From positions 1 to 64,000 of IMG/VR virus record IMGVR_UViG_3300035669_000001: DNA of 64,000 nt; one strand, given 5' to 3'. A program made the translations under genes and the position numbers. Numbering within the stretch: position 1 is the stretch's first letter; every line of letters begins with the position of its first letter. Below are positions 26,383-44,806 of this stretch, piece after piece. The stretch comes from a virus. The notes under the pieces are model-generated. The model was not told where the DNA came from. It searched no databases and saw only the letters and a list, made by a program, of their open reading frames with translations.

Positions 26383-26693
26383 TGACCGGTGTGACAGATG
26401 ACCGCAACGACCCGGGCCTTGCCAAGGTCGACCCACAGACTGGACTACAGGAGACCTACCTAGTGCTCTCTGACGAGGAACGTACCAAAGACCTTGTCAG
26501 GCCTGTACGCCGTTCCTACCTGCACCTGAAGTGCGGTGGGGTGACCACGATGGGGCGCAAACTGGCTGAGACCTACGCGAGAGACCCGAAGTTCTACGAC
26601 GGAACCTACTGTGCAACTTGTCGGTACCACTATCCAGTGGGTGAGAACGGTGAGTTCGTCTGGGAGGGAACAGACGAGAAGGTGGGAACCTAA
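26379..26693 (+). CDS. Conserved phage Zn-binding protein
   Basis: YLVLS.EER...VRPVRRSYLHLKCG...AETYARDP.FY..TYCATC. Confidence 0.7.
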   Translation: MMTGVTDDRNDPGLAKVDPQTGLQETYLVLSDEERTKDLVRPVRRSYLHLKCGGVTTMGRKLAETYARDPKFYDGTYCATCRYHYPVGENGEFVWEGTDEKVGT

Positions 26694-27952: not shown

Positions 27953-29950
27953 GTGAGTATCGACCAGTCCAACTACGCCCAGATGGTGGACGTCACCCAG
28001 GAGGGTGAGGTCAAGCAGCTGCCTGTCGGCGGGATGTTCGACGAGATGGGCGGGACCGGGCTCAAGCGCTCTGCGGGGGTCATCGACGAGGAGTTCATGC
28101 CCGCCCTCCGGGGCACCAAGGGCGTCGCGGTCTTCCGGGAGATGTCGCTCAACGACTACACCGTGGGCTCGTTGCTGTTCACGATCGAGATGCTGCTGCG
28201 CCAGATCGACTGGACGGTGACCGGGGACGACACCTCACCGGAGCAGTCAGAGGCTGTGCAGTTCGTGGAGGAGTGCATGGACGACATGTCCCACTCCTGG
28301 AACGACATGATCGCCGAGATCCTCTCGATGCTCACCTACGGGTGGGCCTGGCACGAAATCGTCTACAAGAAGCGGGTAGGGCCCTGGGAGACCGACCCCA
28401 AGAAGCGCTCCAAGTTCACCGATGGCCGGATCGGGTGGCGCAAGATGCCCATCCGGGCCCAGGAGACGCTGTTCCGGTGGATCTTCGACGTCGACGGCGG
28501 CATCAAGGGGCTCGTGCAGATCCCTCCCCCGGACTACACCCAGCGCACCTTGAGCATCGAGAAGGGCCTGCTGTTCCGCACCGGGATCCACAAGGGCAAC
28601 CCCGAGGGCCGGTCAATCCTTCGGAACGCGTACCGCCCGTGGTACTTCAAGAAGCGCCTGGAGGAGTTCGAGGCGATCGGGGTCGAGCGTGATCTTGCGG
28701 GCCTTCCATTCGCCAAGATCCCCAGCCGGCTGATGGACCCGAACGCCTCCCCTGCTGAGAAGCAGATGTACGCAGCGTTCAAGAAGCTCGTGGCCAACGT
28801 CCGGCGGGACGAGCACGAAGGGGTAGTGATTCCCAGCGACGTCGACGCCGAATCCAAGGCCCCCAAGTACGACTTCCAGCTCCTCGCCTCCGGGGGCAGC
28901 CGCACCTTCGACACCAACGCGCTGATCGGCCGCTACGAGCTGGCCATCCTCTCGACCGTTCTGGCCGACTTCCTCAAGCTGGGTCACGAGGGTCAGGGCT
29001 CCTACGCCATGCACGTGGACAAGACCGGCATCTTCCGGGCTGCTCTCAACACCATAGCCACTGCCATCGCCGACGTCTTCAACCGCTACGCGATCCCGAG
29101 GCTGTTCGCGGCCAACTCCTGGAAGCTGGACAAGCTCCCCAAGATCGAGCCCTCCAACGTCGACCCGCCCAACCTGGCCGAGCTGGGCCAGTTCATGACG
29201 TCCATGGCGGGCCTGGGGATGACCTTCTTCCCCGACCCCGACCTCGAGAAGTACCTGCGTGACACCGCGCACCTCCCCGCCCTCTCAGAGGAGCAGGAGG
29301 AGATGCACCGGATGATGAGCGAGCAGGCCAACGCGATGGAGTTCATGGGGGCCAAGCAGAAGGCCGAGATGGTGGGCCAGGGGATGACCCCCGAACAGGC
29401 CCAGATGCAGTCGGAGATGCCCACCCCGGAGATGCAGGCCCAGGATCCCCAGGCCCAGGCGACCAACCAGAAGATGCAGATGGACCAGGCGGCCTCTGAG
29501 CAGAAGATGGCCCAGGAGGCACAGTCCCACTCACTGCAGCAGGCCACCCAGGCCCAGGGGCTGGAGCAGGCCACCAAGGAGACCGACCTCAAGGCCAAGC
29601 AGGGCGAGGCCGAGCTGGCGACCGAGATGAAGCGGATGCAGATGGAGCTCGACGCCATGAAGGCCAAGATGGGCCTGGAGGCAGAGGGTTCCAAGCAGAC
29701 CCTGGACGCCAAGGCCAAGGGCTCCGCGCTCGACCTCAAGGCCAAGGAGGCGAGCACCAAGGCCGACCTGGACGCCAAGAGGCGGGGCAACGTGATCGAC
29801 CTGAAGGCCAAGCAGGCCCAGGCGAAGCTGCGTCCACAGCCGGCCGCAGGAAGGTCCAAGGGACGCGGAAGGGTGAGCAAGAACGGCAATCTCGGGCCTT
29901 CCAACGGCTGGGGCTGGCCGAACGATGACAACCCGTTCCGTAGGTCCTGA
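27953..29950 (+). CDS. Portal protein (Mu gp29/DUF935-like) with long C-terminal extension
   Basis: MLTYGWAWHEIVYK, GNPEGRSILRNAYRPWYFKK, GVERDLAGLP, AIPRLF..N. Confidence 0.92.
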   Translation: MSIDQSNYAQMVDVTQEGEVKQLPVGGMFDEMGGTGLKRSAGVIDEEFMPALRGTKGVAVFREMSLNDYTVGSLLFTIEMLLRQIDWTVTGDDTSPEQSEAVQFVEECMDDMSHSWNDMIAEILSMLTYGWAWHEIVYKKRVGPWETDPKKRSKFTDGRIGWRKMPIRAQETLFRWIFDVDGGIKGLVQIPPPDYTQRTLSIEKGLLFRTGIHKGNPEGRSILRNAYRPWYFKKRLEEFEAIGVERDLAGLPFAKIPSRLMDPNASPAEKQMYAAFKKLVANVRRDEHEGVVIPSDVDAESKAPKYDFQLLASGGSRTFDTNALIGRYELAILSTVLADFLKLGHEGQGSYAMHVDKTGIFRAALNTIATAIADVFNRYAIPRLFAANSWKLDKLPKIEPSNVDPPNLAELGQFMTSMAGLGMTFFPDPDLEKYLRDTAHLPALSEEQEEMHRMMSEQANAMEFMGAKQKAEMVGQGMTPEQAQMQSEMPTPEMQAQDPQAQATNQKMQMDQAASEQKMAQEAQSHSLQQATQAQGLEQATKETDLKAKQGEAELATEMKRMQMELDAMKAKMGLEAEGSKQTLDAKAKGSALDLKAKEASTKADLDAKRRGNVIDLKAKQAQAKLRPQPAAGRSKGRGRVSKNGNLGPSNGWGWPNDDNPFRRS

Positions 29951-32900
29951 TGCCCTGGGAGCGCACCGGCAGCGGCTACAAGACCGCCAAGGGCGGCTTC
30001 GTCCGTAATCCTGGTCAGTACGAGACCCTTAGGTCCAAGGGGATGTCCAAGAGACGTGCGGCCATGATCTCCAACTCGGTGGGCAAGTCCTACATCGGCG
30101 GCAAGTTCGTCCGGGCGGTGGACCTGACCGCCGAGCAGCGCAAGGTCCTGGGCGCAGGCAAGTACATCCTTTACCGCGGCCGCAACAAGCATGTCAGCAG
30201 AGGTCTTGAGAGGTTCGGACCGAACAACCAATGGAGGCAGTCTCGAGGAGCCAGCGGCAACCGGGGCACCCACCTCAACGAGTACAGGGCAGGGTGGAGC
30301 GCTACCAAGAACGTCGTCGCAGCGCCAGGGAACATGGGTGGTGCTCGCCGGAACAAGCAGGCGTACCGCCGGCTTGAGCAGGTCAACGGGGAGACCAACA
30401 CCGCTGCCTTCACCATCCGTACCGGGTCCAAGAGCACAGGCAAGTCCCACGTCTTCTACAACCGGAAGCGGATGCAGGAGGCCGAGAGTCATAAGCCCGG
30501 CTACCTGGCTGCCGTAGCTCCACACGAGCACGCCCATGCCGCTCCCAAGAGGTCCGGCTACCGGCTCTTCCAGGTCATCCAGGACCCTGCCACGCTGGGA
30601 CGCGAGGAGGCCAGGGCGGACTTCATCGCCTCAGGTGGGAAGCCGGTCAGGGGGCTGAAACGCACGTCCTTCTACGCCCACAACGCCCTGCGGGATCGAC
30701 AGGCGTCCAAGTACAAGTACGTGAAGGACGTCGGGGGCAAGCAGGGCGAGTTCGGTGCGTCCTACATCGCGCACACCCGGATGCTGCACAACAAGATCAG
30801 CAAGCCAAAGAAGGTGTCCAAGGCGTTCGGCGGGGTCAAGCGGGTGGCAGGAGCCTTCGCCAGGAAGCCCACAGCAGAGGCCGCGACCTTCGTGGACAAC
30901 CGGGTGGCTCAGGTTGCTCCCGGGATCACCAGGGCCGCTGCACCGCCGAAGAACGCCACCCAGTCACTGGTCAGCGACACGTTGGCCCACATCAACCGGG
31001 TCAAGGCCAGCCCTCCTGCTGCTGTCCCCTTCGCCCCGCACAAGCCCAAGACCATCGGGTCACTGGGGGCCGAGTGGCATCCCAAGCCACAGGCAGCCGC
31101 TGCGTCCGGGGCTCTCAGCTTCAAGGGCCACAAGGCGCCTCCGCTGACCAAGCCCGCACCAGCGAAGGCAAAGCCTGTTCAGGCACCCCCACCCGCTGCT
31201 CCTCGGCTCTCCCGTGTTGGTGCCCAGCGGAGCAGGTCGGGGTTCCAGGGGTTCACCCGGAGGCCCAGGGTTGTTCCTGCGGCCCCCAGTGCCCCTCCCA
31301 GGGCCGCTCCTGCAGTCACCAGGCCACCTAGTGCCCAGCCGGTGAGCACACCGACCCAGGCTCCGCGTGGCAACGGCCGGCGCAACGCCGGCATTGCAGC
31401 AGCCGGTGCAGGTGCGGTAGGTCTTACCGGAGCAGCGGTCTACTCGAGGAGGAAAAAGGTGGACGGCGTATCAAAGGCGTTCTCCCTACGCGGGGTCGCC
31501 CCGCGCCGGATGGGGGTCAACGTCGGCCAGCATGCCGGTGTGAACACACCACGCAGGGCCGGTGGCTTGTCGAGCATGTTCCAGCGGGGCAGTGCGCCGA
31601 AGCGCGCCATGCAGGCAGGCTCGCGGGAGATGGGTGTCGCTGCCAGCCCTCGTCGGCTGATGGGTCCAGGTGCCGCCCCAGGTGGCGGCATCAACCCCCG
31701 CGGGACTGGACGCCCTGCCAGTGCTGTGGGCCGTCCAGGACTGGCTGCTGCTCCCTCGGTGGCCGCCGGTGGTCCTGCCGCGGCCGCACCCAAGGTGGGA
31801 GGCATCGCCCGTCCGGTCGGTTCCGGCAGCAGGCCGGCGCCGAAGACCGGCGGGATGGCCCGGCCCTACGCCCCGGTGCCCAAGCCTCCGGTGACCACTC
31901 CCAAGCTGCCAGGGGCTGCTGCAGCGCGTCCGTACGCGCCTGTCCCTGTCGCTCCGAGGACCAGCAACCGGAACCGTAACCTTGCCCTGGGAGCAGGCGC
32001 TGTGGGTGCTGGCGGGCTCGGCATGGCCGGTGGTGCTCTCGGGCAGCGCAAGGTCCGCAAGTCCTTCTCGCCCAACCAGGCACGAGACGAAAGGGGCAGG
32101 TTCATGCCCATGGTGCAGATGCTCCAGGTCAACGACTTCGAGCAGACCGAGGACAACGTCGAGAAGAAGTTCGACCGGACCGACAAGATCATCGCCGGAC
32201 TGTCAGCAGTCGGGTTGGCCGGTGCCGGGGCTGCCGCCTACAAGGGCAACAAGGAGGCCAAGCGTCTGGGTGGCACGAAGGGACTCACCACCAAGGAGAA
32301 GATCTTCGGTGTCCGGGGCAAGGTTGCCCAGTGGGCCGGTACCGAGAAGCCCAAAGGTTGGAAGCCCTCGGACCGGGTGCACAAGTCTCTGCGGGTCACA
32401 GGGGCACGTCGGCTCCCGGGGTACAAGCCACATCCTGACGACGTGGAGGAAGCGGTCGCCCTGGCACGCAAGCAGTTCCCCGGTCGCAAGACGACCAAGA
32501 AGGAGGTCCTGGAGGAGCTTCAACCCTCTGGTGGTCTGGGTGGTGTAGCAGGTAGGGGCTTCGGGGCAAGGTCGAACCGCATCTCCAAGGGCTCTCCCGA
32601 CATGGCCGACGTCCACATCGAGGGTGTGCTGCGTCCGGTCGGCAAGATGCGTCGTGCCCGGGTGGAGAAGGGCATGGTCGTGGTGGGCAAGGCCGACGAG
32701 CCCCGCAAGCCCGGCCAGTGGAACGCCAACCAGCGTGCTGGCGCTGCTGGACTGGTGAGCACGTTGGCCGGTGGTGCCATTCCCCTCGGGGTAGGGATCG
32801 GCGCTGGCAGTGCTGCGCGCAAGGGCAAGCGGTTCAAGACCGGCGGCAACGCCTTCGTCCGCACCGGCGCGGAGGGCGGCGTCGGGGGTGCTGTGGGAGC

Positions 32901-33039
32901 AGGTGCGGGTATGTTGACCCGCAACCGTATGGCTACGAAGATCGGCGCAGCTCTCGGTGGAGGTGTCGGGACCGTCCACGGTGCCAATCGGTCGATCGCC
33001 AACTCACGTCGCAAGGGATACCTGAGGAGCGGTTTCTAG
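29950..33039 (+). CDS. Very basic modular head-associated protein (candidate polyprotein)
   Basis: 1029 aa, R/K/A/G/P-rich; about 10 [VI]xK[SAGKM] sites; HEHAH motif; RDERGRF; PDMADVHI. Confidence 0.75.
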   Translation: MPWERTGSGYKTAKGGFVRNPGQYETLRSKGMSKRRAAMISNSVGKSYIGGKFVRAVDLTAEQRKVLGAGKYILYRGRNKHVSRGLERFGPNNQWRQSRGASGNRGTHLNEYRAGWSATKNVVAAPGNMGGARRNKQAYRRLEQVNGETNTAAFTIRTGSKSTGKSHVFYNRKRMQEAESHKPGYLAAVAPHEHAHAAPKRSGYRLFQVIQDPATLGREEARADFIASGGKPVRGLKRTSFYAHNALRDRQASKYKYVKDVGGKQGEFGASYIAHTRMLHNKISKPKKVSKAFGGVKRVAGAFARKPTAEAATFVDNRVAQVAPGITRAAAPPKNATQSLVSDTLAHINRVKASPPAAVPFAPHKPKTIGSLGAEWHPKPQAAAASGALSFKGHKAPPLTKPAPAKAKPVQAPPPAAPRLSRVGAQRSRSGFQGFTRRPRVVPAAPSAPPRAAPAVTRPPSAQPVSTPTQAPRGNGRRNAGIAAAGAGAVGLTGAAVYSRRKKVDGVSKAFSLRGVAPRRMGVNVGQHAGVNTPRRAGGLSSMFQRGSAPKRAMQAGSREMGVAASPRRLMGPGAAPGGGINPRGTGRPASAVGRPGLAAAPSVAAGGPAAAAPKVGGIARPVGSGSRPAPKTGGMARPYAPVPKPPVTTPKLPGAAAARPYAPVPVAPRTSNRNRNLALGAGAVGAGGLGMAGGALGQRKVRKSFSPNQARDERGRFMPMVQMLQVNDFEQTEDNVEKKFDRTDKIIAGLSAVGLAGAGAAAYKGNKEAKRLGGTKGLTTKEKIFGVRGKVAQWAGTEKPKGWKPSDRVHKSLRVTGARRLPGYKPHPDDVEEAVALARKQFPGRKTTKKEVLEELQPSGGLGGVAGRGFGARSNRISKGSPDMADVHIEGVLRPVGKMRRARVEKGMVVVGKADEPRKPGQWNANQRAGAAGLVSTLAGGAIPLGVGIGAGSAARKGKRFKTGGNAFVRTGAEGGVGGAVGAGAGMLTRNRMATKIGAALGGGVGTVHGANRSIANSRRKGYLRSGF

Positions 33040-33042
33040 GCC

Positions 33043-35121
33043 ATGACCCAGCCCAAGGTCGTGATCCACGGGAAGTTCGAGGACGGAGACCTCCCCGCCC
33101 AGGGGACGCTGACGTTCTCCGACTTCGCCTTCTCCACCGACACGGTGGAGAACGTCATCCACGTCCCCCACACGGAGAAGGCCTACCTCGACCAGAACGG
33201 TGAGTTCTGGGTGGAGCTGCCCCTGAACGTGGGCATCAACTCCACCCCCACGCCCCGCCGGTACTCCGTGGACATCGCCGTCTCGGGGTTCGCCGACTCC
33301 TGGGAGTTCGTGCTCGACCCGACTTCCCTGCAGGTCGAGCTCTCCTCCCTGATGCCGGTCAACGCCCCGCCGGTGATCCCCTACCAGTACGTCTCCTCGC
33401 TGATGGGCATGACGGGCCCGATCACCTACTCCGACTTCATTGAGCGCGTCCCACAGCTGGCCCCGGACGCCGGCAAGAGCGCCTACGAGCTCTGGGTGGA
33501 CCAGGGCAACACCGGGTCGTTCTCCGACTTCCTGGACGACATCTCAGGCCCTCCTGGGATCATGGGGCCGCGCGGTGCCCAGGGAGACATAGGCACCGAG
33601 GGCCCACGGGGGCTGAGAGGCCCGGCTGGACCCCAGGGCAGGCCCTTCCACCTCGACGCCATCGTGATGACCGAGTCGGCTCTCAGTGGCGGTGGAGGGG
33701 TGCTCACCGACGACGAGCAGACCGTCCTGATGCCCAAGTGGAGCATCGTCGCCGTCTTGGAGAACCAGTCCTTCTACCACTTCGACGGGGTCGAGTGGCG
33801 CAACCTCGGCTCCTACAAGGGCGCGCAGGGGGAGCCGGGCAACACCCCGACCGCGGCCGACCTCGGGCTCGGGACCTTCGTGGGCCTCACCCCGGCCACG
33901 ATGCCCATCCCCGGCTCGGTGCAGATCGCCCTGAACACCCTGGCGGCCAACGTGGGCCAGGTGCAGAGTGTCAACGGCCAGGTCGGTGAGGTGGAGATCG
34001 GCGCGGACGACGTGGGTCTCGGCAACGTCGCCAACCTGGCTCCCTCCCAGATGCCCGTCTCGGCCGACACCCAGGCGGCCCTGAACGCCCTGAGCGTCCT
34101 GCTGGGGGGCAAGGAGCCCCTGCTGCCCTCGGGCGGCACGGTGACCACCTTCCTGCGCGGGGACAAGTCCTGGCGCACCCTGATCCCCGCTGACGTGGGT
34201 CTGGGGCAGGTGCGGAACTTCGCCTCGATGAACGTGCTGGGCTCGGTGAGCCTGGACGCCGTGACCTCCACCGGCACCTACCACCAGCCCTTTGACACGG
34301 TCGCCTCCACCGACCTGGGCTACCCGGTGAACAGGGCGGGCTTCCTGGTGGTGGTGGCCAACAACGACGGCACCAAGATGGTCGCCCAGAGCTACACCAC
34401 CTACGGCTACGCGGGGTCGGAGTCCCGGGTCTATCTGCGCGCGATCTACGCCACCAACTCCTGGGGCCCCTGGCGGCAGGTCTACACCTCATCGGGTGCT
34501 GACCCCTTCACGGCGCAGTCCTACCGGGGCACCTCGGGTGGAGGGGTGTCAGCCTCCGGTGTGGTGCATGCGCGGTCCTTCGTGGCCAGTGCGGGCATCT
34601 CGGCTTTTGACCTGGACTCCGCAGCAGGGGTGACGGTGTCCTACCCGCTGGCCCCGGTGGTCGGCACCCTGCCGGACGCCTTCCCACAGGGGTACTCGGT
34701 CTGGCGCCTGCAGGCCGGTGCAGCCGGCAGCCCCACCGGCTACCCGGTTCTCTCGGGCACACTGGAGAGCTACCGCAACACCTTCTACCCCAGGCAGCGC
34801 CTCACAGCAGTCGACGGCACGGTCTACACCAGGACCTTCTCGGGAACCTGGTCGCCCTGGAAGGTCAGCGACAACCTCCAGTTCCTGGCCGGTCAGGTGG
34901 CCATCCTGCCCTCTGCCATCGACGTCCCCACCTCGGTGGTGGTCAACCTTCCGGCTGGGAGGTTCAGCGTCCCGCCTGTTACCGTCGTCTCGGCCAACTC
35001 CTCGGTGCCCGACCGGATCCACGTCAGCACCCAGCTCGCCACGGTGGACTCCTTCACCGTCACCATGACCCGGTCGTCCGTGGCCAACACCTTCATCAAC
35101 TGGCTGGCCGTAGGAGTCTGA
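33043..35121 (+). CDS. Tail fibre with pyocin-knob-like domains
   Basis: SAYELW, collagen, VQSVNGQVG..DVGLGNV, two knob-like repeats ending WGPW/WSPW, C-terminal H-lectin-like INWLAVG. Confidence 0.8.
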   Translation: MTQPKVVIHGKFEDGDLPAQGTLTFSDFAFSTDTVENVIHVPHTEKAYLDQNGEFWVELPLNVGINSTPTPRRYSVDIAVSGFADSWEFVLDPTSLQVELSSLMPVNAPPVIPYQYVSSLMGMTGPITYSDFIERVPQLAPDAGKSAYELWVDQGNTGSFSDFLDDISGPPGIMGPRGAQGDIGTEGPRGLRGPAGPQGRPFHLDAIVMTESALSGGGGVLTDDEQTVLMPKWSIVAVLENQSFYHFDGVEWRNLGSYKGAQGEPGNTPTAADLGLGTFVGLTPATMPIPGSVQIALNTLAANVGQVQSVNGQVGEVEIGADDVGLGNVANLAPSQMPVSADTQAALNALSVLLGGKEPLLPSGGTVTTFLRGDKSWRTLIPADVGLGQVRNFASMNVLGSVSLDAVTSTGTYHQPFDTVASTDLGYPVNRAGFLVVVANNDGTKMVAQSYTTYGYAGSESRVYLRAIYATNSWGPWRQVYTSSGADPFTAQSYRGTSGGGVSASGVVHARSFVASAGISAFDLDSAAGVTVSYPLAPVVGTLPDAFPQGYSVWRLQAGAAGSPTGYPVLSGTLESYRNTFYPRQRLTAVDGTVYTRTFSGTWSPWKVSDNLQFLAGQVAILPSAIDVPTSVVVNLPAGRFSVPPVTVVSANSSVPDRIHVSTQLATVDSFTVTMTRSSVANTFINWLAVGV

Positions 35122-35122
35122 C

Positions 35123-35665
35123 ATGGGTCGTCTGGTCGAGAGACTGAGATGGCTTGCATCCAAGCCACTGCTGTTCGGGCACTGGATTGTGGAGAAGATC
35201 GACGACTCCAGGATCAAGGCGTGTCCGGTCACCCGGGCCCTGATCCGGCTCATCTCCTCGGCGACCTTCGTCTACGCGATGGCGATCATGGTCGGTGGTG
35301 AGAAGCGCTGGTCCCAGGTCACCTACTCGGTCCTCAACCAGTTTCCTGGTTCTCCGTACAGCTGGGCCTCGATCCTGATGACCACGACGGTGATGGTGAT
35401 GGCCGGGTCGCTGCTGGCCTCGCACGACCACTCCTGGGGCCAGTGGCTGAAAGACGCCGGGTTCTTCCTCGGGTGCCTGTGGTGGATCACCTTCGGGCTC
35501 TGCGTGGCCAGCGCGGTCACCCCCACCAACTCGGTGCCCTTCTCCACTGCGGTATTCCCGTTGCTGCCTATCGTCGTCTACGTCTGTCTGGGCATGGTCG
35601 ACGAGCGCAACTCCTTCGACGACGAGGAGATCTTCGCCAGGCCCTACCACTCACACCCCGCGTAG
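35123..35665 (+). CDS. Membrane protein (4 TM)
   Basis: Four hydrophobic segments. Confidence 0.75.
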   Translation: MGRLVERLRWLASKPLLFGHWIVEKIDDSRIKACPVTRALIRLISSATFVYAMAIMVGGEKRWSQVTYSVLNQFPGSPYSWASILMTTTVMVMAGSLLASHDHSWGQWLKDAGFFLGCLWWITFGLCVASAVTPTNSVPFSTAVFPLLPIVVYVCLGMVDERNSFDDEEIFARPYHSHPA

Positions 35666-35673
35666 GAGCCGCC

Positions 35674-36135
35674 ATGATCCAGAAACACTCCATCCCCTCG
35701 CCCAACCCTGTCGCGTTCGGGATGAGCGTTCTGCTGATGGTGGCGTTGGTACAGATAGCCAGGGGCCAGGGTGACGTGCCGGTCTCTCTCCAGGAGATGC
35801 CTACCACCGGGATCGTCGCGCTCTACGGGATGGCACTGGGCTGCCTGATGGTCATCGGGGGCAGCGCGTTCCAGGTCCCGTCGCGCTTCCTCTCGCTCCG
35901 CACCAGGATCAACGGCTTCTGGGTGGAGTTCTTCGGCAGTGTGCTGGTCGGCTTCGGTACGGTGGCCTACTGGCTGGCGATCTACCTGGTCAACCCGGTG
36001 CAGGGCACCCTTGCGGGGTTCTCCAGCGCCTGTCTCACACTCATGTTCTGTGGTCGGGGGATCCAGATCATCCGTCTCGTCCTCCGAGTGGGGAGGGAGG
36101 CGGATGCTCTCCGGGCGAAGGAGTCCCTCGAGTGA
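35674..36135 (+). CDS. Membrane protein (4 TM)
   Basis: ATG after AGGAG; four hydrophobic segments. Confidence 0.75.
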   Translation: MIQKHSIPSPNPVAFGMSVLLMVALVQIARGQGDVPVSLQEMPTTGIVALYGMALGCLMVIGGSAFQVPSRFLSLRTRINGFWVEFFGSVLVGFGTVAYWLAIYLVNPVQGTLAGFSSACLTLMFCGRGIQIIRLVLRVGREADALRAKESLE

Positions 36136-36539
36136 ACACGCAGCTGGTCTACAACGTGATCCTGGCGGTCGTCGGGACCACGTGGTTCGGCAGTGCCTTG
36201 ATGTTCTTCCTGACCCGGAGGCGCTTCCGCGCCGACGTCCGGAAGGTGGAGGCCACCATCACCACCGACGAGGCCAACACCGCACGGATCATCACCGAGA
36301 CCTCCTCCGGGCTGCTCAAGGACGTCAACGCCCAGTTGGCGGCCCAGGCCAACCGGATCGCCAGCCTGGAGCAGTCCCGGGTCGCCACCATCGCCTTCAT
36401 GCGCCGGCAGGGGATGGCCCTGCGGCAGATGCGGGACATCGTTCTCGTGCTCAACAAGGAGCTCGAGAAGGTCGACGGGAAGTCCCATCCGGTGCCCGAC
36501 ATCGACGAGATCCTCAACACCGACATCACTAGCCTGTGA
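36132..36539 (+). CDS. Single-TM coiled-coil protein (holin/lysis accessory-like)
   Basis: N-terminal TM, RRRFR, coiled coil, HPVP end. Confidence 0.7.
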   Translation: MNTQLVYNVILAVVGTTWFGSALMFFLTRRRFRADVRKVEATITTDEANTARIITETSSGLLKDVNAQLAAQANRIASLEQSRVATIAFMRRQGMALRQMRDIVLVLNKELEKVDGKSHPVPDIDEILNTDITSL

Positions 36540-36554
36540 TGGGAGAATCCTGGT

Positions 36555-39338
36555 ATGGCGTTCAACGAACACTGCGCTCAGCGCGTCTACGACATCGTCT
36601 CCAAGATGGACGACGACGAGGCCCAGATGTTCGGCCTCCTGGTGGCCCACGACGTGTGGTCGCGTGACGTCCGGGCCAACGAGCGGTACCTCCGCCGGCT
36701 GAAGGACTCCTACGATGCCGAGGTCACGGACACGGTTGCCAAGGCCCTCCTCGAGCACCTGGACGAGGGCGGCGACCCTGAGGCTGCTGTGGCGGTCGCA
36801 GCGGCTGTGGCAGTCGCGAAGGACGACGACGACTGGTGGAAGTTCCAGGAGCGCGACAAGCAGGGTCGCTTCGGCCGGATGACCGGTGCCCAGTACCGGG
36901 CCAACCTGAAGGCGATCAAGGCCAGTGCCAAGCTGACCCAGGCTGAGCGCAAGGCGCAGCTGAAGGACGCCAGGTCCGGACGGGCCAACTACCTCAGCGG
37001 CTCGGGGCTCTACGTCGACGTCAAGGGAGGCGGTCAGGGAGTCGTCCGAGGTACCCAGAGGTTCGAGCAGGACTGGAACCGCCCACCGGACGAGGAGTCC
37101 AACGCCACCACCACCTTCAACCGGCTGAAGACCGGCGGCCAGACGGTGCAGGCCATCGGCGCCGCCACGGGCAGCCAGAAGCTAGCCATCGCGGGTGCGG
37201 TGGGCAACTACGCCGGTCAGTTCGGCCCGGAGGCCGAGAAGGTCGTCGGGCCCTCCATCCGGCGGACCGCCTACCGCTACCGGGGGACAGAGCGTCGTCC
37301 CGACGCTGCCTACGTGCAGATCGCCCAGGCCAACCTCAACGAGGTCAAGCGTGAGGGGCAGCCGGTCACTGCGGAGCAGAAAGCCTTCGCGGCCGAGACC
37401 GCGGCGATCCGGTACTTCCTCGGTGACGACCCGACGGCTGGCAAGCGGGGCGGTGGCTCACGCATCCCCAGTGCGAAGCTCTCCGGGCTGCACCGCGCCT
37501 CGGGCCGGATCACCCCCTCCGAGGGCATCATGATCGACGCCAACGGCAACATCGCCCACCAGGCGGTCGGCTACGGCGAGGACCACTACCTGCCCTTCAA
37601 CCTCAAGAACCTCTCCGCGCTCAAGGGCGGCTCCTACATCCGGACGCGCGAGAGCGGCGGTCTGACCACCGAGGACATCTACACCGGTCTGGTGGCCGGT
37701 GCGCGCTCGATGACGGTGGTGAGCAACTCCGGGGTCTTCACAGTGGACTACGCCGACGACCTGCGCGGAGGCAGGCGCTACAACGACAAGGCCCGGCAGA
37801 TGGTCAGCCGCTACGGCCAGACCCTGGACGCGATCCAGTCCGAGAAGGTGGCCAACCCGGAGCGCGGCCTGTCCTCGCGGGAGAGGGCGAAGATCCAGGT
37901 CGAGACCGAGCAGAAGATCAACGAGGACCCGATCCTGCGGTCCTTCCCCGACGACCAGAAGAAGTCCTGGGTCAAGGAGGCGATCCAGCGCGCCGAGTCC
38001 ACCACCCAGCTGTCCGAGGACGAGATCGCCGAGATCGACCGGAAGTCCAAGGAGCAGGGCAAGACCAAGTCCGACCAGGACATCTTGTTCCGTCAGCTGT
38101 ACGACGAGAAGATCGACGCGGTCAGCCGCCGGCACTACCGGTTGGACGGTGAGGGTTACGCCACCTCGATGGAGGCGCTGCGCGAGCAGTTCCCCTACTA
38201 CATCTCCAACATCAGCTACCGCACGGTCAAGAGCAACGACTCGCTGGCTCCCGACAGGTTCAACCGGGCCACCGACAAGGGCTACGTCAAGCCGCGGTTC
38301 AACCGGCCCGAGGGAGCCCAGTCGGGCTACTACGACGACACCATCACCGGCAGGGGCAAGACCAGCGCCGACCGGACGGACTACCAGAACTGGCGGGTCC
38401 GGGCCAAGCGCGGGGGAGATGTTGCGGCTGTTGCGGATGTTGCGGCAACCACGGGTGCCCCCAACAGCATGAAGGCCACCCAGGACAAGTTCGCGGCCGA
38501 GGCCAAGGAGAAGGCCGGCGACCCGTTGATGAACAACGCCATCATCTCCGACGCCGACTCCCTCAAGGCCACCCACGAGGCCTCCCGCGAGGCCAAGGCC
38601 GGTGGCATCGGGATGCAGTACGAGGGTGTGCACGAGTGGTTCAACGCCGACGACTCCGAGCGGCACGCCATCATGGCCGACCCGGCCCGCAGGGCGAAGC
38701 TCAAGGCCGACATCACCAAGGTGAAGCGGGACTACGCCAAGGAGTTCGGTTCCTCCGCGCCGCAGAACATCGAGTTTGCCGAGAAGAAGGCGAAGACCGC
38801 CATGATGAGCGACGAGGTCCTCGCGGCCGAGAAGGCCCCGGACACCCCGCTGCGGATCACCGACGAGCAGTTCGAGCAGGCGGCTCAGACCGACCACATC
38901 CGCAACCTCACCCAGCAGGAGGACCACGACCTGCAGGCGATCAGCCAGGACCTGCGTACCCAGCGCGCCCTCACGGCGAAGGCGGGCAACGACAAGGAGA
39001 CCACGTCGCTCACCCAGCAGATCACCGCGCTGGAGTACGCCCGCGCCCTCAAGGCCCGCACCACCGAGGTGCCGACCGACGTCTACGCCGAGATCGCCCA
39101 GCGCACCAGCCCGACCAAGGGCACGCTCACCCCGGTGCCGAAGGTCTCGTCGAGGGCCACGCTCACGTCCACCCAGGCCACTGAGCAGGTCCGCCGGCTG
39201 CACAACCAGCACCGGCTCGGGCTGATCGACGCCAACGAGTTCGAGCGGAGCGTCAGAGAGGTCATCGAGGACTCCGACATGGACGATAACGAGAAGCAGG
39301 TTGAGTACCGCCGTGCTACCGGGAACATCATGCGGTGA
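36555..39338 (+). CDS. Large head-associated protein with degenerate JAB-like domain
   Basis: VSKM/VAKA/VAKD sites, RDKQGRF, E-GIMIDANG...LKGGSYIRTR..GGLTTEDI. Confidence 0.7.
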   Translation: MAFNEHCAQRVYDIVSKMDDDEAQMFGLLVAHDVWSRDVRANERYLRRLKDSYDAEVTDTVAKALLEHLDEGGDPEAAVAVAAAVAVAKDDDDWWKFQERDKQGRFGRMTGAQYRANLKAIKASAKLTQAERKAQLKDARSGRANYLSGSGLYVDVKGGGQGVVRGTQRFEQDWNRPPDEESNATTTFNRLKTGGQTVQAIGAATGSQKLAIAGAVGNYAGQFGPEAEKVVGPSIRRTAYRYRGTERRPDAAYVQIAQANLNEVKREGQPVTAEQKAFAAETAAIRYFLGDDPTAGKRGGGSRIPSAKLSGLHRASGRITPSEGIMIDANGNIAHQAVGYGEDHYLPFNLKNLSALKGGSYIRTRESGGLTTEDIYTGLVAGARSMTVVSNSGVFTVDYADDLRGGRRYNDKARQMVSRYGQTLDAIQSEKVANPERGLSSRERAKIQVETEQKINEDPILRSFPDDQKKSWVKEAIQRAESTTQLSEDEIAEIDRKSKEQGKTKSDQDILFRQLYDEKIDAVSRRHYRLDGEGYATSMEALREQFPYYISNISYRTVKSNDSLAPDRFNRATDKGYVKPRFNRPEGAQSGYYDDTITGRGKTSADRTDYQNWRVRAKRGGDVAAVADVAATTGAPNSMKATQDKFAAEAKEKAGDPLMNNAIISDADSLKATHEASREAKAGGIGMQYEGVHEWFNADDSERHAIMADPARRAKLKADITKVKRDYAKEFGSSAPQNIEFAEKKAKTAMMSDEVLAAEKAPDTPLRITDEQFEQAAQTDHIRNLTQQEDHDLQAISQDLRTQRALTAKAGNDKETTSLTQQITALEYARALKARTTEVPTDVYAEIAQRTSPTKGTLTPVPKVSSRATLTSTQATEQVRRLHNQHRLGLIDANEFERSVREVIEDSDMDDNEKQVEYRRATGNIMR

Positions 39339-41506
39339 GCGTCCCCGCCTTTGACCAGGAGCCACTGACGCCCCAGGAGGCCTACCAGGTCGACTACGTC
39401 ATCCGAGGGGCACAGGGGGGCTCCACGCTGGCTGTGGCGGCCGCACTGGGCGGGGCCTTCCTGGTGTACCGGGCGTACATGCGGAGACGCCTGCGGGAGC
39501 GCATGGGCTCGCTGGAGGGCACCACGCCCGAGGAGGTGATGCGCGAGACCAACCAGGTGTTCTCCACCTTCATGCCCACCTGGACGGCGATGGCCGCACC
39601 TGCTCTCTTGCAGGGCTACCTGTCCGGGGTGGCCGAGACGGAGTTCGGGCTGGACGAGGCGTTCCTGTCCGAGCTGGCCGATAACTACGCCTACTCCCTC
39701 GGGATGCACATCAACCAGGTCTCCGGCGACGCTCTCGTGCGCGGGTACGCGGCCCAGGTGAACCGGAAGGTCCCGGCCAAGGTCGCCCTGGGCAACGTGA
39801 TCGACGCGGTCGGGGTGACCAACTCCCACATGCGGACTCTGAACGTGATGCTCTCGGGCAAGGAGGACGCCAAGCTCAGCGAGACCCTGATCCCCTCGGT
39901 CAAGAAGGCCAGGGCACAGCGCCAGGTGATGGCCGCCCTCAACCAGCGCGCCGAGGTGATCGGCGACTCGGAGTCCTGGAACGCCAAGCAGCAGGGCAAG
40001 CAGATCGCCTGGTTGTACGCCCAGCGTCAGGGGTTCATCCCCTCCACCGCTACCCGGGAGTGGATCACCGCCGACGACGAGCGGGTCTGCCCGTCCTGCG
40101 GCCCGCTGCACAAGGTGGAGCTGCCGGTCGCCGAGCAGTTCGACATCCCGAACGTCGGCAAGTTCTGGTCCCCGCCCGTGCACCCGAGGTGCCGCTGCGA
40201 CGTGCGTCTCAAGGTCGGCCTGGGGCAGATCATCGCCAACAACGTGGTCTTCGGGCAGTTCGGCCGGCAGTGGCTCAAGCCCGACGACGTCGAGGAGGTC
40301 GGAAAGTCCGACAACCCCCACGACAACGACTGGGACACCCAGCCGAGACAGAAGACCGGCAGGTTCGGCGCGCGTCCTGAGGTTCGTTTCAAGGAGGCTG
40401 ACGTCGACCTCGATGCGGCCATCGCCCAGGCCACCCAGGCGGCGCAGATCGAGGACGCGGTACCCAAGGGTCCGATCCTCGGGCGAACGGTGCTGGGAAA
40501 GCCAGGGGTGATAGGCGAGACGACACTGGGCAAGCCTCCGGTGCTCGGCCAGGTCGTCCTCGGCAAGCCTCCTGTCCTCGGCGGGTCCAAGCTCGAGTCG
40601 CAGGGTCTGCAGGCCCAGCGGATGAAGTCTCACGCCCTGCAGGGCCGCAAGCTGGACAAGAGCAAGCTGGACCATGCCAGGCGGATGGCCCGGGCCGAGA
40701 TGGACGGCCGGATCATGGCACTGCCCGGGGACATCTCGGGCACGGTGGTGGACGACGAGGTCAAGGCACCCGAACCCGACTACTCCGACCTGGTGCCCAC
40801 TCCGGAACCCATGTTCGCCGTTGCCGATCCGCGTTGGGTTATTCGTGGACCAAACACCGACTCGCGTTCAATCAACGCTTCCAACGGTATGTACCGGCTG
40901 GACGGAGCCGAGGTGATAGGCGGGGTGGACAAGCTCCAGGCCAAGATCGAGGAGCTCGAGGCCGAAGCTGACGACGAGTACCTGGAGTACCTCTTTGACA
41001 GTAATGAGGCGAGCTACTTCGACAACGAAACCGGTTGGGAGAGTCCCGTCCCCGAGCACGTCTACGCCGCAGCTATGGAGTGGGTTCGGGCCCAGGAACA
41101 GACAAACATGGCGGTGGCGGACTTCACGGTCGAGCTTGATGCGTACGGGCCGCTGTGGACCAAGGACGGCACGCCGGTGGAGGGAGGGTACAACCATCCT
41201 GACTACGAGGCCCTCTACGAGAACGGGGATATTGAGTTTGACCTGGTTGACAGCCAGTACGTGCAGATCTCTGACATCGCGGACAAACTGAGTCTTTGGG
41301 AGCACGTCAGCGATACTCAGCCCCGGATCATCCAGCTGGACAAGGTCAGGGGCAACGACGTCGACTACGACCCTGACGGTGCTCCTTATGCCCAGGTGAG
41401 CGATAGCTACAAGATGGACGGGATGTCCACGGTCACCATCAACGGGAGGCACTATGTGACCGCCCGACTCGAACCGGCCTGGCTGGACGAAGGCGGGAGA
41501 ATGTAG
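39335..41506 (+). CDS. MuF-like (gpF/SPP1 gp7) minor head protein with C-terminal extension
   Basis: EWITADDERVCPSCGPLH...PPVHPRCRC. Confidence 0.88.
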   Translation: MSVPAFDQEPLTPQEAYQVDYVIRGAQGGSTLAVAAALGGAFLVYRAYMRRRLRERMGSLEGTTPEEVMRETNQVFSTFMPTWTAMAAPALLQGYLSGVAETEFGLDEAFLSELADNYAYSLGMHINQVSGDALVRGYAAQVNRKVPAKVALGNVIDAVGVTNSHMRTLNVMLSGKEDAKLSETLIPSVKKARAQRQVMAALNQRAEVIGDSESWNAKQQGKQIAWLYAQRQGFIPSTATREWITADDERVCPSCGPLHKVELPVAEQFDIPNVGKFWSPPVHPRCRCDVRLKVGLGQIIANNVVFGQFGRQWLKPDDVEEVGKSDNPHDNDWDTQPRQKTGRFGARPEVRFKEADVDLDAAIAQATQAAQIEDAVPKGPILGRTVLGKPGVIGETTLGKPPVLGQVVLGKPPVLGGSKLESQGLQAQRMKSHALQGRKLDKSKLDHARRMARAEMDGRIMALPGDISGTVVDDEVKAPEPDYSDLVPTPEPMFAVADPRWVIRGPNTDSRSINASNGMYRLDGAEVIGGVDKLQAKIEELEAEADDEYLEYLFDSNEASYFDNETGWESPVPEHVYAAAMEWVRAQEQTNMAVADFTVELDAYGPLWTKDGTPVEGGYNHPDYEALYENGDIEFDLVDSQYVQISDIADKLSLWEHVSDTQPRIIQLDKVRGNDVDYDPDGAPYAQVSDSYKMDGMSTVTINGRHYVTARLEPAWLDEGGRM

Positions 41507-41508
41507 CC

Positions 41509-42360
41509 ATGGACGTACTGGAGGCTCTGCGCGCGCACGGTGAGGCTGGGGCGGCTGTCGTGGACCTGCTCTACGGCGAGGGTGCGGAGGAGGTTGTCAA
41601 GGCTCTCAGTGAGGACCGCAAGCGGAAGATCGCCACCGCCTCCAACGTGGTCGGGATCGGCGCTGGGCTGGCTGCCATCCCCGGTGCCACCCGCGACTTC
41701 CGGAACGCCGCGAAGACTGCCAGGGGTGCCAGTGACAAACCGGTCGGCGTCCTGAAGCCGGTGGGCAAGATCCGGGGCAACATCCGCGGTGGTCTCAAGG
41801 CCACCAAGAACTTCCTGGGCAAGCCGAAGACCGCGCTGGCACTGGCCGGCGGCGGTCTGGCCCTGCAGGCGGGGAACGTCGGCGGGGACTTCGTGACCAA
41901 CCAGGTCCTCCGCGCCGACCAGAAGAAGTCGGGCGTCTCCAAGGGGCTGACCGACATCGAGTGGACCGGCGAGTTCTCCAAGATGGACACCGACAAGCGC
42001 CAGGTGTTCGGGTGGGCCTCGGTCACCGCGGTCGACGGCGTCCCGGTGACCGACCTCCAGGAGGACGAGATCGACCTCGAGGAGATCGAGAAGGCCGCCT
42101 ACTCCTACGTGGCCAAGTCCCGGGTCGGCGGCAACATGCACAAGAAGACCATCGACGGCTCCCCGGTGCACGTCTCCGACATGATCGAGTCCTTCGTGGT
42201 CACCCCGGAGAAGAAGCAGACGCTGCACCTGGGCAACGACACCCCGGAAGGGTGGTGGGTCGGCTTCCAGGTCAACGACGACGAGACCTGGGACGCGGCC
42301 AAGAACGGCGAGCTGGTGGGCTTCTCGATCCACGGAACGGGAAAGAGGCGTGACGGCTGA
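41509..42360 (+). CDS. XkdF-like prohead serine protease with N-terminal extension
   Basis: KRQVFGWASV...DLQEDEI...EKAAY...NMH...IESF...PEGWWVG...TWDAAKNGELVGFSIHG. Confidence 0.9.
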   Translation: MDVLEALRAHGEAGAAVVDLLYGEGAEEVVKALSEDRKRKIATASNVVGIGAGLAAIPGATRDFRNAAKTARGASDKPVGVLKPVGKIRGNIRGGLKATKNFLGKPKTALALAGGGLALQAGNVGGDFVTNQVLRADQKKSGVSKGLTDIEWTGEFSKMDTDKRQVFGWASVTAVDGVPVTDLQEDEIDLEEIEKAAYSYVAKSRVGGNMHKKTIDGSPVHVSDMIESFVVTPEKKQTLHLGNDTPEGWWVGFQVNDDETWDAAKNGELVGFSIHGTGKRRDG

Positions 42361-43589
42361 TGCCCATGGTGAAGCTGGTGTTCGTCCCGGAGACGACGAA
42401 CAAGCCGACCAGGCAGTCCCACAACATCGTGGCGCTGCCCAAGATCGAGCCTCTGCAGGGCAAGGGGAAGCCCCAGTTCGGGCGCAACGGCAAGCCGGTC
42501 AGCAACGTCTCCGATGCGCTGTTCGGGCGCGGGGGAGGCGTCCACACCGACGTGATCCGCAAGGCCCTGAGCAGGGAGCAGAAGGTGGGCGTGGGAGCCG
42601 CCGGCGTGGTAGGTGCCGGGCTGGCAGCAGGTTCGGTCGGACGAGCGGTCAGATACGGCGGCCAGGCGCGCAACGCCTTCCGGGTGGCCCAGGGTTTTAG
42701 TCATGGCCCCGCCCACCAGGCCGGGGCCACCCTCAAGCAGTACGGCGCACATCGCAGGAAGATGGCTCTCCGCAACGTGGGTGCGGCGACAGTGGCGGGC
42801 GGGCTCCTGGCTGGCGGTACGGCCGCCACGATGTCCAGTGCCAACGCAGCGAACCAGCGCCGCACCGGTGTGGCCAAGATGAGTGACGCGGAGCTTCGCC
42901 ACCGCAAGCGCGTCCAGGCCGGGATCAGCATCGGCACCTCCACCCTCGGTCTCTCCGCGCTGGGGTCAAAGGCCGGGGCCGGTGTGCTCCGCAAGCTCAA
43001 CAAGGCCCCGGGTGCGGCCCATCGGCTGGACAAGGCAACCACCAACCTGCTCACCAGCGGTGCAGGACTGGGTGGGGTCGGTGGGTTCAACTTCGCCTCG
43101 GTGCAGCGCCAGGAGGCCAGGAAGCGGACGCCGGTGGTAAAGGCTTACGACCCCGAGCGCAACCGGGAACGCAGGGCCAGGCAGGAGGCCAAGGTGGCAG
43201 GAGTCGTCGGAGGTGCAGCGTCCGGCGGTGCGCTAGCGGCTGGAGGTCTCGCAGCACGACGTGGGTTTCAACGCCGGGACGAGACCACCCGGATAGGTAG
43301 TCCGGTGGAGCTCGAACAGGAGGTTCTCCCCGGTGGCGGCAAGACCCGACTGGACCCGAGGGGGCGAGTTCACCACGGGCCTGCTCGGAAGTTCCGGACG
43401 GCGAACTTCGGGGAGAAGATGTCCTCGGCGACCAAGGTCAAAGGGCTCAAGGCCAGCCAGGTGAGGGCGGGCAAGGTCGGTGTCGGACTGGCCGCGCTGG
43501 GCGTCGGCGGGCTGGTTGCGTCGGACCGGATCGCCTCCTACTCCCGGGGGAAGGGGCGGAAGTACTCACCCCGGTTCAAGCGGGACTGA
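42360..43589 (+). CDS. Basic Gly-rich modular protein (candidate polyprotein)
   Basis: Three cassettes starting at IRK|A, VAK|M, VVK|A, each with two Gly/Ala hydrophobic segments. Confidence 0.75.
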   Translation: MPMVKLVFVPETTNKPTRQSHNIVALPKIEPLQGKGKPQFGRNGKPVSNVSDALFGRGGGVHTDVIRKALSREQKVGVGAAGVVGAGLAAGSVGRAVRYGGQARNAFRVAQGFSHGPAHQAGATLKQYGAHRRKMALRNVGAATVAGGLLAGGTAATMSSANAANQRRTGVAKMSDAELRHRKRVQAGISIGTSTLGLSALGSKAGAGVLRKLNKAPGAAHRLDKATTNLLTSGAGLGGVGGFNFASVQRQEARKRTPVVKAYDPERNRERRARQEAKVAGVVGGAASGGALAAGGLAARRGFQRRDETTRIGSPVELEQEVLPGGGKTRLDPRGRVHHGPARKFRTANFGEKMSSATKVKGLKASQVRAGKVGVGLAALGVGGLVASDRIASYSRGKGRKYSPRFKRD

Positions 43590-43627
43590 ACGGGTTGCAG
43601 GCTAAGACAGAATTGTGGGTGAGGAAC

Positions 43628-44806
43628 ATGCCAAAGCTCAGTGATCTGAACATCGACGAGGTCAGCCTCGTGCGCAAGGGCGCCAACCAACATGCCCGGG
43701 TGGCAATCGCGAAGTCAGCAGGAGGAGAAGTGGACGAGGAGTACTTCGACCAGGAAGGAAACGCGGTCGACGTCGAGGAGCTCGAGCATGGCGACATCGT
43801 CTTCGACTCTGACGGTGAGGCCTACCAGTACGACGAGCCTGGTGACGATGACGACGAGGTCGAGAAGGCCCTGTACGTCGGTGGCCGCGAGGTCACCAGC
43901 CGGGTCGGACGTGCCGCTGGCAAGGCGTACATCGGAGCCGGCCGCAAGGCCAAGTCCGCCAACAAGTTCCGGATCCAGACAGGTGCGATTGCCGGGCAGG
44001 CAGCCCGCAGGGGCGCCAAGCGTGTATCCAGCGCTGCCGGTACGGGTGCCGGGTTCGTCGCCGGCAACGCCAAGCGTGGTGCAGGGGCAGTGGCGGGAGC
44101 CGCACGTAGCACCGGCACGGCAGCCGGGAACGCGGGCAACGCCATGGGCGGGGCGATCCGCGGGGCCGCGGCGCAGACCGAGGGCTTCCTGCGCACCGAG
44201 AACAACGCCTTCAACACCCGCGGCCGGATCGGCGCCCTCGGTGCCGGTGGTGTGCTCGCCGGTGCCGGTGGCGGCTACGCGGCAGGCAGCAACGGCCGGG
44301 TCCGCAAGAGCGCGTCCGACGACCTCCGGGAGGAGCTCTCCAAGGCACTCACCGACGACGACCGGGACGAGGTGATCGCGAAGGCCTTCGGGTACGTCGA
44401 ACAGGCCGAGCAGGTCGCCCAGGAGGCCTGGGAGATCGCCGAGGAGGAGCGGGAGAACCGCCGGGCTGCGGAGTTCTACGAGGTGGCCAAGTCCTACGAC
44501 ATGGTCCCGGTGGATACCGAGGACCTCGCGATCGCCATGATGCACATGGCCGACCTGCTGCCCGAGGAGGACGTGCAGGTCATCGCCAAGGCCCTGGGCT
44601 TTGCGGCCGACGTGGCCGACGAGCTCTACGAGGAGCAGGGCAACGTGGGCGGTGGCGACAACTCCGACGTGATGGAGCAGCTGCAGACGTTCGCGCGCAA
44701 CCGGGTCGCCAAGTCCGGTGAGGGCTCAGCCGAGCAGTACCTGGTCGATGCCCTCAACCATGACCCAGCGGTGTACGACCAGTACCTCGCGGACAACAGC
44801 CGCTGA
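43628..44806 (+). CDS. Scaffolding protein carrying the protease EVSLV..AN strand and a basic insert
   Basis: MPKLSDLNIDEVSLVRKGAN; eight [VIL]xK[SA] sites; C-terminal PAVYDQY; lies before decoration and capsid genes. Confidence 0.8.
   Translation: MPKLSDLNIDEVSLVRKGANQHARVAIAKSAGGEVDEEYFDQEGNAVDVEELEHGDIVFDSDGEAYQYDEPGDDDDEVEKALYVGGREVTSRVGRAAGKAYIGAGRKAKSANKFRIQTGAIAGQAARRGAKRVSSAAGTGAGFVAGNAKRGAGAVAGAARSTGTAAGNAGNAMGGAIRGAAAQTEGFLRTENNAFNTRGRIGALGAGGVLAGAGGGYAAGSNGRVRKSASDDLREELSKALTDDDRDEVIAKAFGYVEQAEQVAQEAWEIAEEERENRRAAEFYEVAKSYDMVPVDTEDLAIAMMHMADLLPEEDVQVIAKALGFAADVADELYEEQGNVGGGDNSDVMEQLQTFARNRVAKSGEGSAEQYLVDALNHDPAVYDQYLADNSR

Follow-up and report, generated by a model that had tools for sequence, protein, structure and literature searches.

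In this study, a short recurring motif in the head proteins of an uncultured phage, recovered by metagenomic sequencing, was analysed. The window, meaning the whole stretch of DNA analysed, comprises positions 1 to 64,000 of the IMG/VR virus record IMGVR_UViG_3300035669_000001, namely, the first 64 kb of a 77.9-kb viral record with a GC content of 65%. Its head module lies on the plus strand in the order portal, p1029, intervening genes, p927, MuF, protease, p409, scaffold, cement and capsid, and the protease gene sits within this module, adjoining the scaffold and capsid genes. In p1029, p927, MuF, the protease, p409 and the scaffold, valine or isoleucine, any residue, lysine and a small residue recur in this order. 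This motif is probably the cut signal of the phage's own XkdF-type serine head protease, which would cut after the lysine. The principal genes (lengths in amino acids, aa) are as follows:

27953-29950, plus strand: Mu-type portal protein (Pfam Portal_Mu, E 1.5e-31; phrog_113, E 1.3e-84)
29950-33039, plus strand: p1029, a basic multi-module protein of 1029 aa with nine strict motif sites
36555-39338, plus strand: p927, a head protein of 927 aa with 32 orthologues
39335-41506, plus strand: MuF-like head protein (Phage_Mu_F just below its cut-off; PHROG head-morphogenesis matches)
41509-42360, plus strand: protease of 283 aa, XkdF/Peptidase_S78_2 (Pfam, E 4.2e-19)
42360-43589, plus strand: p409, a protein of 409 aa with a 68-aa leader and three basic Gly/Ala modules
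43595-44806, plus strand: putative scaffold, acidic, 403 aa, with eight strict motif sites
44830-45249, plus strand: cement protein (Phage_cement_2, E 8e-7)
45263-46258, plus strand: gpE-like major capsid protein (phrog_1005, E 1.6e-82)

Strict sites are matches to [VI]xK[SAGM], and an arrow marks the bond that would be cut. Every tetrapeptide listed by an earlier, sequence-only reading of this DNA was present at its position and in its open reading frame (ORF), and six further matches were found (VGKM at 32638, VKKA at 39899, VPKG at 40460, IEKA at 42085, VAKS at 42109 and VRKG at 43670). The six head proteins together contained 29 strict matches against 8.1 expected (z 7.7), a number that none of 1000 whole-protein shuffles equalled. 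Block shuffles of 15, 30 or 60 residues, which keep local composition, gave expectations of 8.1-8.4 and a maximum of 20 in 2000. The comparison with other ORFs proposed in the sequence-only reading came out as it had anticipated, since the window's 35 remaining confident ORFs (11,056 aa) held 15 matches against 13.7 expected; the 2040-aa tape measure, with 79 lysines, held none against 2.2 expected. Control motifs with R for K, L/F for V/I, shifted spacing or reversed order were not enriched in these proteins, and a blind scan of all 8000 patterns of the form a.bc in the six proteins placed V.KS first. Taken singly, the scaffold (8 vs 0.62), p1029 (9 vs 2.7, p 0.002) and the protease (4 vs 1.0) were significant, and thus the enrichment claimed earlier for six head proteins holds for the six as a set and for only three of them alone. 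In MuF, p927 and p409, the support comes from conserved junction sites and not from counts.

The sequence-only reading had also described an abrupt switch of amino-acid composition at many sites. This switch is statistically real, with a mean divergence between 25-residue flanks of 0.088 at sites and 0.053 at other lysines (p 0.0003), but it is modest and is carried by about eight sites. Comparison of the between-site fragments with each other by BLAST gave one weak pair only (E 0.002). This near-absence of similarity means that recent repeat duplication does not inflate the motif count, and duplication was ruled out as its source. The proposal that the portal tail carries a site, VSK↓N at 29873, did not hold, because the C-terminal tails of 12 related portals have no matching hydrophobic-x-K site; it is probably not a real site. 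The cement protein has no motif copy and the capsid protein has one (0.47 expected). No N-terminal propeptide with a site was found in the capsid protein, and neither protein is a predicted substrate. Motif depletion was not seen in the portal and capsid proteins, which must stay intact, and this gives no argument either way.

Relatives were gathered as 80 IMG/VR loci via the capsid protein (59-75% identity, 43-70% GC), with crude gene calls; the capsid protein and the portal worked as queries for retrieving related loci, and the whole protease as query retrieved none. Upstream of the capsid gene, the 80 loci contained 912 motif copies against 317 expected, and downstream, in the tail region, 278 against 193. 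V.KS ranked second of the 8000 patterns in the non-redundant upstream proteins of these relatives and I.KA was also high, and neither ranked downstream. The scaffold sites at K250, K263 and K299 are kept in 50-60 of 60 orthologues. The lysine itself is strictly kept, with K40, K250, K263 and K373 of the scaffold invariant in 27 sequences, and [VI]xR[SAGM] is not enriched. In MuF, V-x-K-[AS] at K324 occurs in 20 of 24 orthologues; in p927, the K17 site is present in 14 of the 16 sequences having the column and the K89 region in 10 of 12. The homologue alignment that had been suggested as a check gave the expected picture, in which sites are kept in the scaffold, MuF and p927 while the cassettes of the scaffold and the protease vary in length.

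The protease matches Peptidase_S78_2 with 69.2 bits against a cut-off of 24 over residues 155-280, corresponding to positions 4-124 of the 126-position profile, a match confirmed on the genome, and His211, Ser273 (in GFSIHG) and His275 are invariant in 36 aligned homologues. It is divided by motif sites into three parts:

41509-41601, plus strand: leader, aa 1-31, ending in VVK↓A, with a site at residue ~31 in many of 120 homologues
41602-41943, plus strand: basic Gly/Ala cassette, aa 32-145, net charge +15, ending in VSK↓G
41944-42357, plus strand: catalytic domain (Pfam), aa 146-283, with internal sites IEK↓A (K195) and VAK↓S (K203)

The cassette varies in length among homologues of 249-600 aa, and the V and K of the linker reach majority consensus. 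Two database searches gathered 241 XkdF-family proteins, whose N-terminal extensions contain 517 motif copies against 186 expected and whose C-terminal extensions contain 55 against 17.7. In 168 of 235 proteins, the 30 residues ahead of the catalytic domain include a site, and in 24 of the 27 that continue past the domain one directly follows GFSIHGxGKR. This pattern on both flanks is what self-processing would be expected to give. The family, which is spread over soil, marine and actinobacterial phages, counts about 1900 cluster representatives (E <= 1e-10) in a library of 1.8 billion proteins. A literature search on XkdF/S78 specificity or a Lys-directed prohead protease found only mentions in genome annotations.

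A structure model of the protease had a mean predicted local distance difference test score (pLDDT) of 66. The top of 48,161 PDB chains in VIA-align was the T4 prohead protease gp21 (5jbl), a weak match with Z 4.9 and a root-mean-square deviation of 4.2 over 106 residues; Foldseek with the model returned no match at E <= 0.001, and a PDB sequence search with the protease returned chance matches only. The ORF stops 10 aa past the catalytic Ser. The catalytic domain is nevertheless probably complete, because the gp21 alignment, weak as it is, spans nearly the whole gp21 chain and 120 homologues share the end point. A split protease, in which the scaffold N-terminus would supply a missing strand in trans, was considered and dropped for this reason; complex prediction for the protease domain with scaffold residues 1-60 scored 0.34, and one control scored 0.37, a result that weighs on neither side.

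The scaffold has LSK↓A at K250 in addition to its eight strict sites, and 47% of its lysines stand in the motif. One cassette is embedded between two of these sites:

43868-44308, plus strand: basic Gly/Ala cassette, aa 92-238 of the scaffold, between VEK↓A and VRK↓S

This cassette of 147 aa has a net charge of +20, consists of G and A to 48% and is predicted to be disordered in the model. The scaffolds of most relatives are of about 270 aa, which makes the window's cassette an indel; in other lineages, V[GE]K↓[SAG] at the corresponding position is followed by inserts of other lengths. The scaffold N-terminus is strongly conserved in relatives over aa 14-40 (43634-43714; LSDLNIDEVSLVRKGANQHARVAIAK), and its sequence LSDLNIDEVSLVRKGANQ shows a weak match to head-maturation-protease PHROGs (phrog_3270, E 2.6e-4; phrog_3017, E 0.01). 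This gives a hint that the scaffold may descend from a protease-scaffold fusion, or may dock to the protease.

The three modules of p409 start after IRK↓A, VAK↓M and VVK↓A and have net charges of +13, +11 and +19. Modules beginning with MSDAELRHRK and AYDPERNR are ORF starts in some relatives; when internal, they come after VSK↓, VAK↓, IGK↓ or VKK↓. The p409 modules and the protease cassette look alike by eye. Neither p409 nor the p927 core yielded a usable lead in Atlas searches. At 42357-42363, the stop codon of the protease gene overlaps the start codon of p409 (ATGA), which places p409 in the -1 frame, and relatives always carry one or two basic-cassette genes between protease and scaffold.

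In p1029, p927 and MuF, sites stand next to domain ends and to a recurring tag. The features concerned are as follows:

29950-30087, plus strand: p1029 module 1, aa 1-46, DUF7218 (Pfam, E 7.7e-8, residues 18-47)
30523-30621, plus strand: HEHAH...REEARAD, p1029 aa 192-224, HExxH metallopeptidase-like
32080-32103, plus strand: tag ARDERGRF, p1029 aa 711-718, seven residues after VRK↓S
32596-32619, plus strand: PDMADVHI, p1029 aa 883-890, an 8/8 copy of the capsid N-terminus (45272-45295)
36846-36872, plus strand: tag QERDKQGRF in p927, after VAK↓D
40343-40366, plus strand: tag PRQKTGRF in MuF, after K324

The strict sites of p1029 are K46, K291, K509, K704, K812, K880, K899, K907 and K914, and the fragments between them have net charges of +7 to +32 and Gly/Ala hydrophobic stretches. 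The end of DUF7218 coincides with VGK↓S at K46. Besides this domain and the HExxH module, p1029 holds basic low-complexity modules, and the majority of its modules have no family match. In p927, VSK↓M (K17), VAK↓A (K63) and VAK↓D (K89) lie within the first 89 aa, and beyond them come the tag and then a conserved core; p927 has no Pfam or PHROG match. MuF matches Phage_Mu_F with 28.0 bits, just below the cut-off of 29.6 (E 4e-6), and its residues 192-294 match PHROG head-morphogenesis and portal-associated families down to E 4e-11; the HPxCRC motif is kept in 26 orthologues. At the end of the MuF domain stands VGK↓S (K324, 40298-40309), followed by the tag and an acidic C-terminal part of 345 aa. 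In the linker past HPxCRC, V-x-K-[AS] forms the sole conserved columns, and the tag follows 8-14 residues on.

In MuF, p927-like and p1029-like proteins, the C-terminal part starts with the tag, (W/F)(D/E)..(E)HPRx3-8G[RQK][FW], which comes 8-14 residues behind a hydrophobic-x-K (e.g. L021:2932-5427 and L046:3454-5748, two of the related loci). Across loci, hydrophobic-x-K precedes it in 30 of 38 distinct contexts, and it never stands at an ORF start. The tag may serve in retention, as an ejection signal or as a protease exosite. Some p927-like proteins have two tags. The capsid-like PDMADVHI of p1029 begins two residues after ISK↓G, and none of 100 shuffled N-termini reached 7/8. The post-portal protein of one relative (L091, 6700-6760) reads EVSK↓MGPDQSELHV, and its own capsid N-terminus reads MNPTQSDLHV; the mimic thus seems to follow the capsid sequence. 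In two other relatives, no capsid N-terminus mimic of at least 6/8 was found.

These observations are best accounted for if V/I-x-Lys followed by a small residue is the cut signal of the XkdF-type protease, with cutting after Lys, and we consider this reading likely. The attribution of such cuts to the protease at 41509, made in the sequence-only reading, fits the conservation, the junction placement and the both-flank pattern better than the alternatives do, and junction placement is the strongest argument for the predicted cutting. Several points weigh against it. The whole case consists of sequence statistics, from which the cleavage, its exact bond and the sites used are inferred. Counts in MuF (3 vs 1.0), p409 (3 vs 1.1) and p927 (2 vs 1.6) are not significant singly, and the post-portal proteins of several relatives are barely enriched or not enriched, e.g. 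2 vs 1.7 and 1 vs 1.3. VLK↓A lies within a conserved fold element of the capsid protein, so the motif alone is insufficient for cutting, and two further matches lie in the portal core. The low-confidence protease model and its weak fold match do not allow the S1 pocket for Lys to be assessed. The scaffold sites K263 and K332 are mid-helix in the predicted model, and the HExxH module of p1029 is a candidate second protease in the same phage. An artefactual enrichment, arising from composition, duplicated repeats or a motif chosen post hoc, can be given almost no credence: the motif was indeed defined after viewing the data, the proteins are compositionally extreme and the p409 and protease-cassette modules resemble each other, but the local-composition shuffles left the expectation the same, the fragments are nearly devoid of BLAST similarity, the blind scan recovered the motif also in independent relatives, and the motif persists across their GC range. 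A functional motif that is not cut, serving for docking to the protease, shell interior or portal or as a site of lysine modification or cross-linking, seems unlikely to us. It would suit the conserved sites in folded helical parts of the scaffold (K263 and K332 among them) and those inside the catalytic domain (K195 and K203), for which cutting and a structural role are equally plausible, and our literature search found no experimental cleavage data for any XkdF protease. However, one would not expect a docking motif to mark the very edges of indel cassettes, to stand immediately ahead of modules that form ORFs of their own in other phages, or to flank the catalytic domain of fusion proteins on both sides, and T4 gp21 is an established case of scaffold dicing and protease self-cutting at short motifs.

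It is quite improbable that the motif is a cleavage code read by another protease, for which the HExxH module (p1029 aa ~190-225), a host protease or the product of ORF 26690-27511 might be considered. Post-portal proteins of five relatives keep the signature HExxHxxP[KR]R...REE[AG]RA[DE], which also occurs in two stand-alone ORFs, and MPTase-driven processing of virion-packaged polyvalent proteins has been proposed (Iyer et al. 2017, PMC5512222). The ORF at 26690-27511 matches phrog_16701 'peptidase' (E 5.9e-28), but it is encoded on the minus strand, away from the head module and close to a lysin-like gene. The HExxH module matches no Pfam peptidase family even at E <= 5; it is possibly a small zinc metallopeptidase packaged in the head. 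The distribution of the two candidates across phages separates them. The XkdF domain was present in five of five further records, namely, the complete Arthrobacter phage Kovu and those behind L021, L030, L033 and L098, and their scaffold or capsid-upstream proteins are motif-rich. A protein match to the HExxH module was found in none of these five, and the DNA signature HExxHxxP[KR]R was absent from the four that were scanned (Kovu, L021, L030 and L098), with the window record as positive control. The code therefore tracks XkdF, and the motif on both sides of the XkdF catalytic domain family-wide is the pattern that self-processing would be expected to leave. In L098, a 171-aa protease has its catalytic domain after IVK↓GRFKIAK↓S, and the 374-aa scaffold has 14 relaxed sites. 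In Kovu (PQ184785.1; L081/L099), gene 20, annotated as 'RNA ligase', carries a C-terminal XkdF domain right after LTK↓A and looks like a cargo-enzyme-protease fusion; gene 27 is scaffold-like and holds 5 strict sites against 0.8 expected. Kovu gene 18 is annotated as 'capsid maturation protease', and Phage_Mu_F is its only Pfam match; the deposited protease annotation is probably misplaced.

If the XkdF-type protease reads the motif, processing might proceed as follows. The protease would be co-assembled with scaffold and cargo in the procapsid, where it would shed its own 31-aa leader and 114-aa basic cassette, and it may later inactivate itself at the two sites inside its catalytic domain. 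The acidic scaffold would be diced at about eight sites into pieces of at most 50 aa that are able to exit the shell, thereby freeing the 147-aa basic cassette. Cargo parts starting with the (E)HPR..GRF-type tag would be split off from the MuF domain and from the first 89 aa of p927, and p409 and p1029 would be cut into basic Gly/Ala-rich modules. The figure of 15-20 distinct peptides given in the sequence-only reading was a guess, as cutting at the strict sites alone would yield over 30 fragments, and some matches may go uncut. That the products are packaged and injected, as it also proposed, is conjecture, and so is the fate of the basic peptides, whether charge neutralisation and retention on DNA or membrane action on ejection.

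A wider proposal is offered tentatively, and as a whole it is possible rather than probable. The scaffold and protease genes may double as carriers of excisable basic Gly/Ala 'zipper' cassettes of 100-150 aa inserted between cut sites, and the same modules may circulate as free small genes, as tandem arrays (p409) or within essential head genes. Under this proposal, the acidic pieces would exit, and the basic peptides would stay on the DNA and be ejected as condensers or membrane-active entry factors, while the fragment with the copy of the capsid N-terminal arm would tether some of the cargo to the shell or portal vertex. Embedded basic cassettes would be an unusual route for loading peptides into a capsid. 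If the cut signal is as predicted, the mature protein ends in XkdF phages become predictable from sequence and the cargo modules are delimited, thereby aiding the annotation of many 'hypothetical' head proteins. Because trypsin also cuts after Lys, Lys-directed cuts would be invisible to routine tryptic virion proteomics, and this would account for their having gone unseen there.

The genome of 78 kb is siphovirus-like. No close relative was found among 50,697 deposited phages, in which the nearest capsid proteins, at about 42% identity, belong to Pseudomonas phages KPP23/RSP and to Arthrobacter phages; prophage relatives, sought to name a host, were absent from 185,579 bacterial genomes. The remaining gene between the portal and the head genes that was assigned is the following:

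33043-35121, plus strand: p692, a protein of 692 aa, collagen-repeat/tail-fibre-like

No motif copy occurs in this protein, which lies inside the head module and may be either a head fibre or the product of a misplaced tail gene. A 138-aa ORF (36149-36565, minus strand) lies amid the plus-strand structural block, with a third-position GC content (GC3) of 0.94 and no PHROG family match. The minus-strand ORF 26690-27511 has no Pfam family, the nearby protein at 24030-25103 has a weak peptidoglycan-binding domain, and the two probably form the lysis region.

Processing of many head proteins by a prohead protease is already known from T4, phiKZ and SPN3US, and the experimentally known codes are those of T4-like and phiKZ-like phages, which cut after Glu. 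The window contributes cassettes lying between sites within the scaffold and protease, modules that occur internally and equivalently as free ORFs, motif copies on either flank of the catalytic domain and a phyletic test against a rival protease. T4 gp21 (MEROPS S77) dices the scaffold, trims the targeting peptides of cargo and destroys itself; it cuts after Glu in I/L-x-E, and its autoproteolysis is self-limiting. The system proposed here resembles it in having a head-encoded serine protease, a code of three residues whose P3 is aliphatic and whose P1 is charged, and many substrates in the head interior. It differs in that P1 would be Lys instead of Glu, that the Pfam family is S78_2/XkdF, that the capsid protein has no propeptide and appears uncut, and that the putative targeting parts are long N-terminal regions whereas the conserved tag stays on the C-terminal product. 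As in phiKZ (gp175) and SPN3US (gp245, for which 14 sites in nine proteins were mapped by semi-tryptic mass spectrometry), many head or ejection proteins carry short-motif sites, which are predicted in the present case. However, phiKZ and SPN3US are jumbo myoviruses with a (S/A/G)-x-E code and gp21-like enzymes, whereas the phage described here is a 78-kb siphovirus-like phage with XkdF and a Lys code.

HK97 gp4 (Peptidase_S78) is an S78-clan enzyme, as is the protease here, and HK97 gp5 is matured at a Lys↓Ser bond. In HK97, however, there is no separate scaffold or cargo, and the substrate is the delta domain of the capsid protein itself; we know of no documented V/I at P3. Outside the phages, the adenovirus protease cuts the core precursors pVII and pre-mu at a short motif, leaving small, very basic peptides on the packaged DNA. 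That enzyme is an unrelated cysteine protease of a eukaryotic virus, and the likeness lies in the basic peptides, for which a DNA role here is conjectural. Polyvalent proteins are multi-module, virion-associated and swappable, some are MuF-linked, and a peptidase was proposed to release their modules (Iyer et al. 2017, PMC5512222). p1029 also has several modules, most of them without a family match, and carries the HExxH signature, which has no Pfam peptidase match. Processing of polyvalent proteins was assigned to a zincin-like MPTase, whereas the junction code here tracks a prohead serine protease; most modules here are basic, Gly/Ala-rich non-enzymes, and cassettes lie within the scaffold and protease genes, unlike in polyvalent proteins. 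MuF polymorphic toxins join a MuF domain to a variable C-terminal part and are thought to be virion-delivered, and their description is silent on cleavage, linkers and junction motifs (Jamet et al. 2017, PMC5576092). In the proteins analysed here, unlike in that description, a conserved V-x-K↓[AS] and an HPR..GRF tag divide the MuF domain from the variable part.

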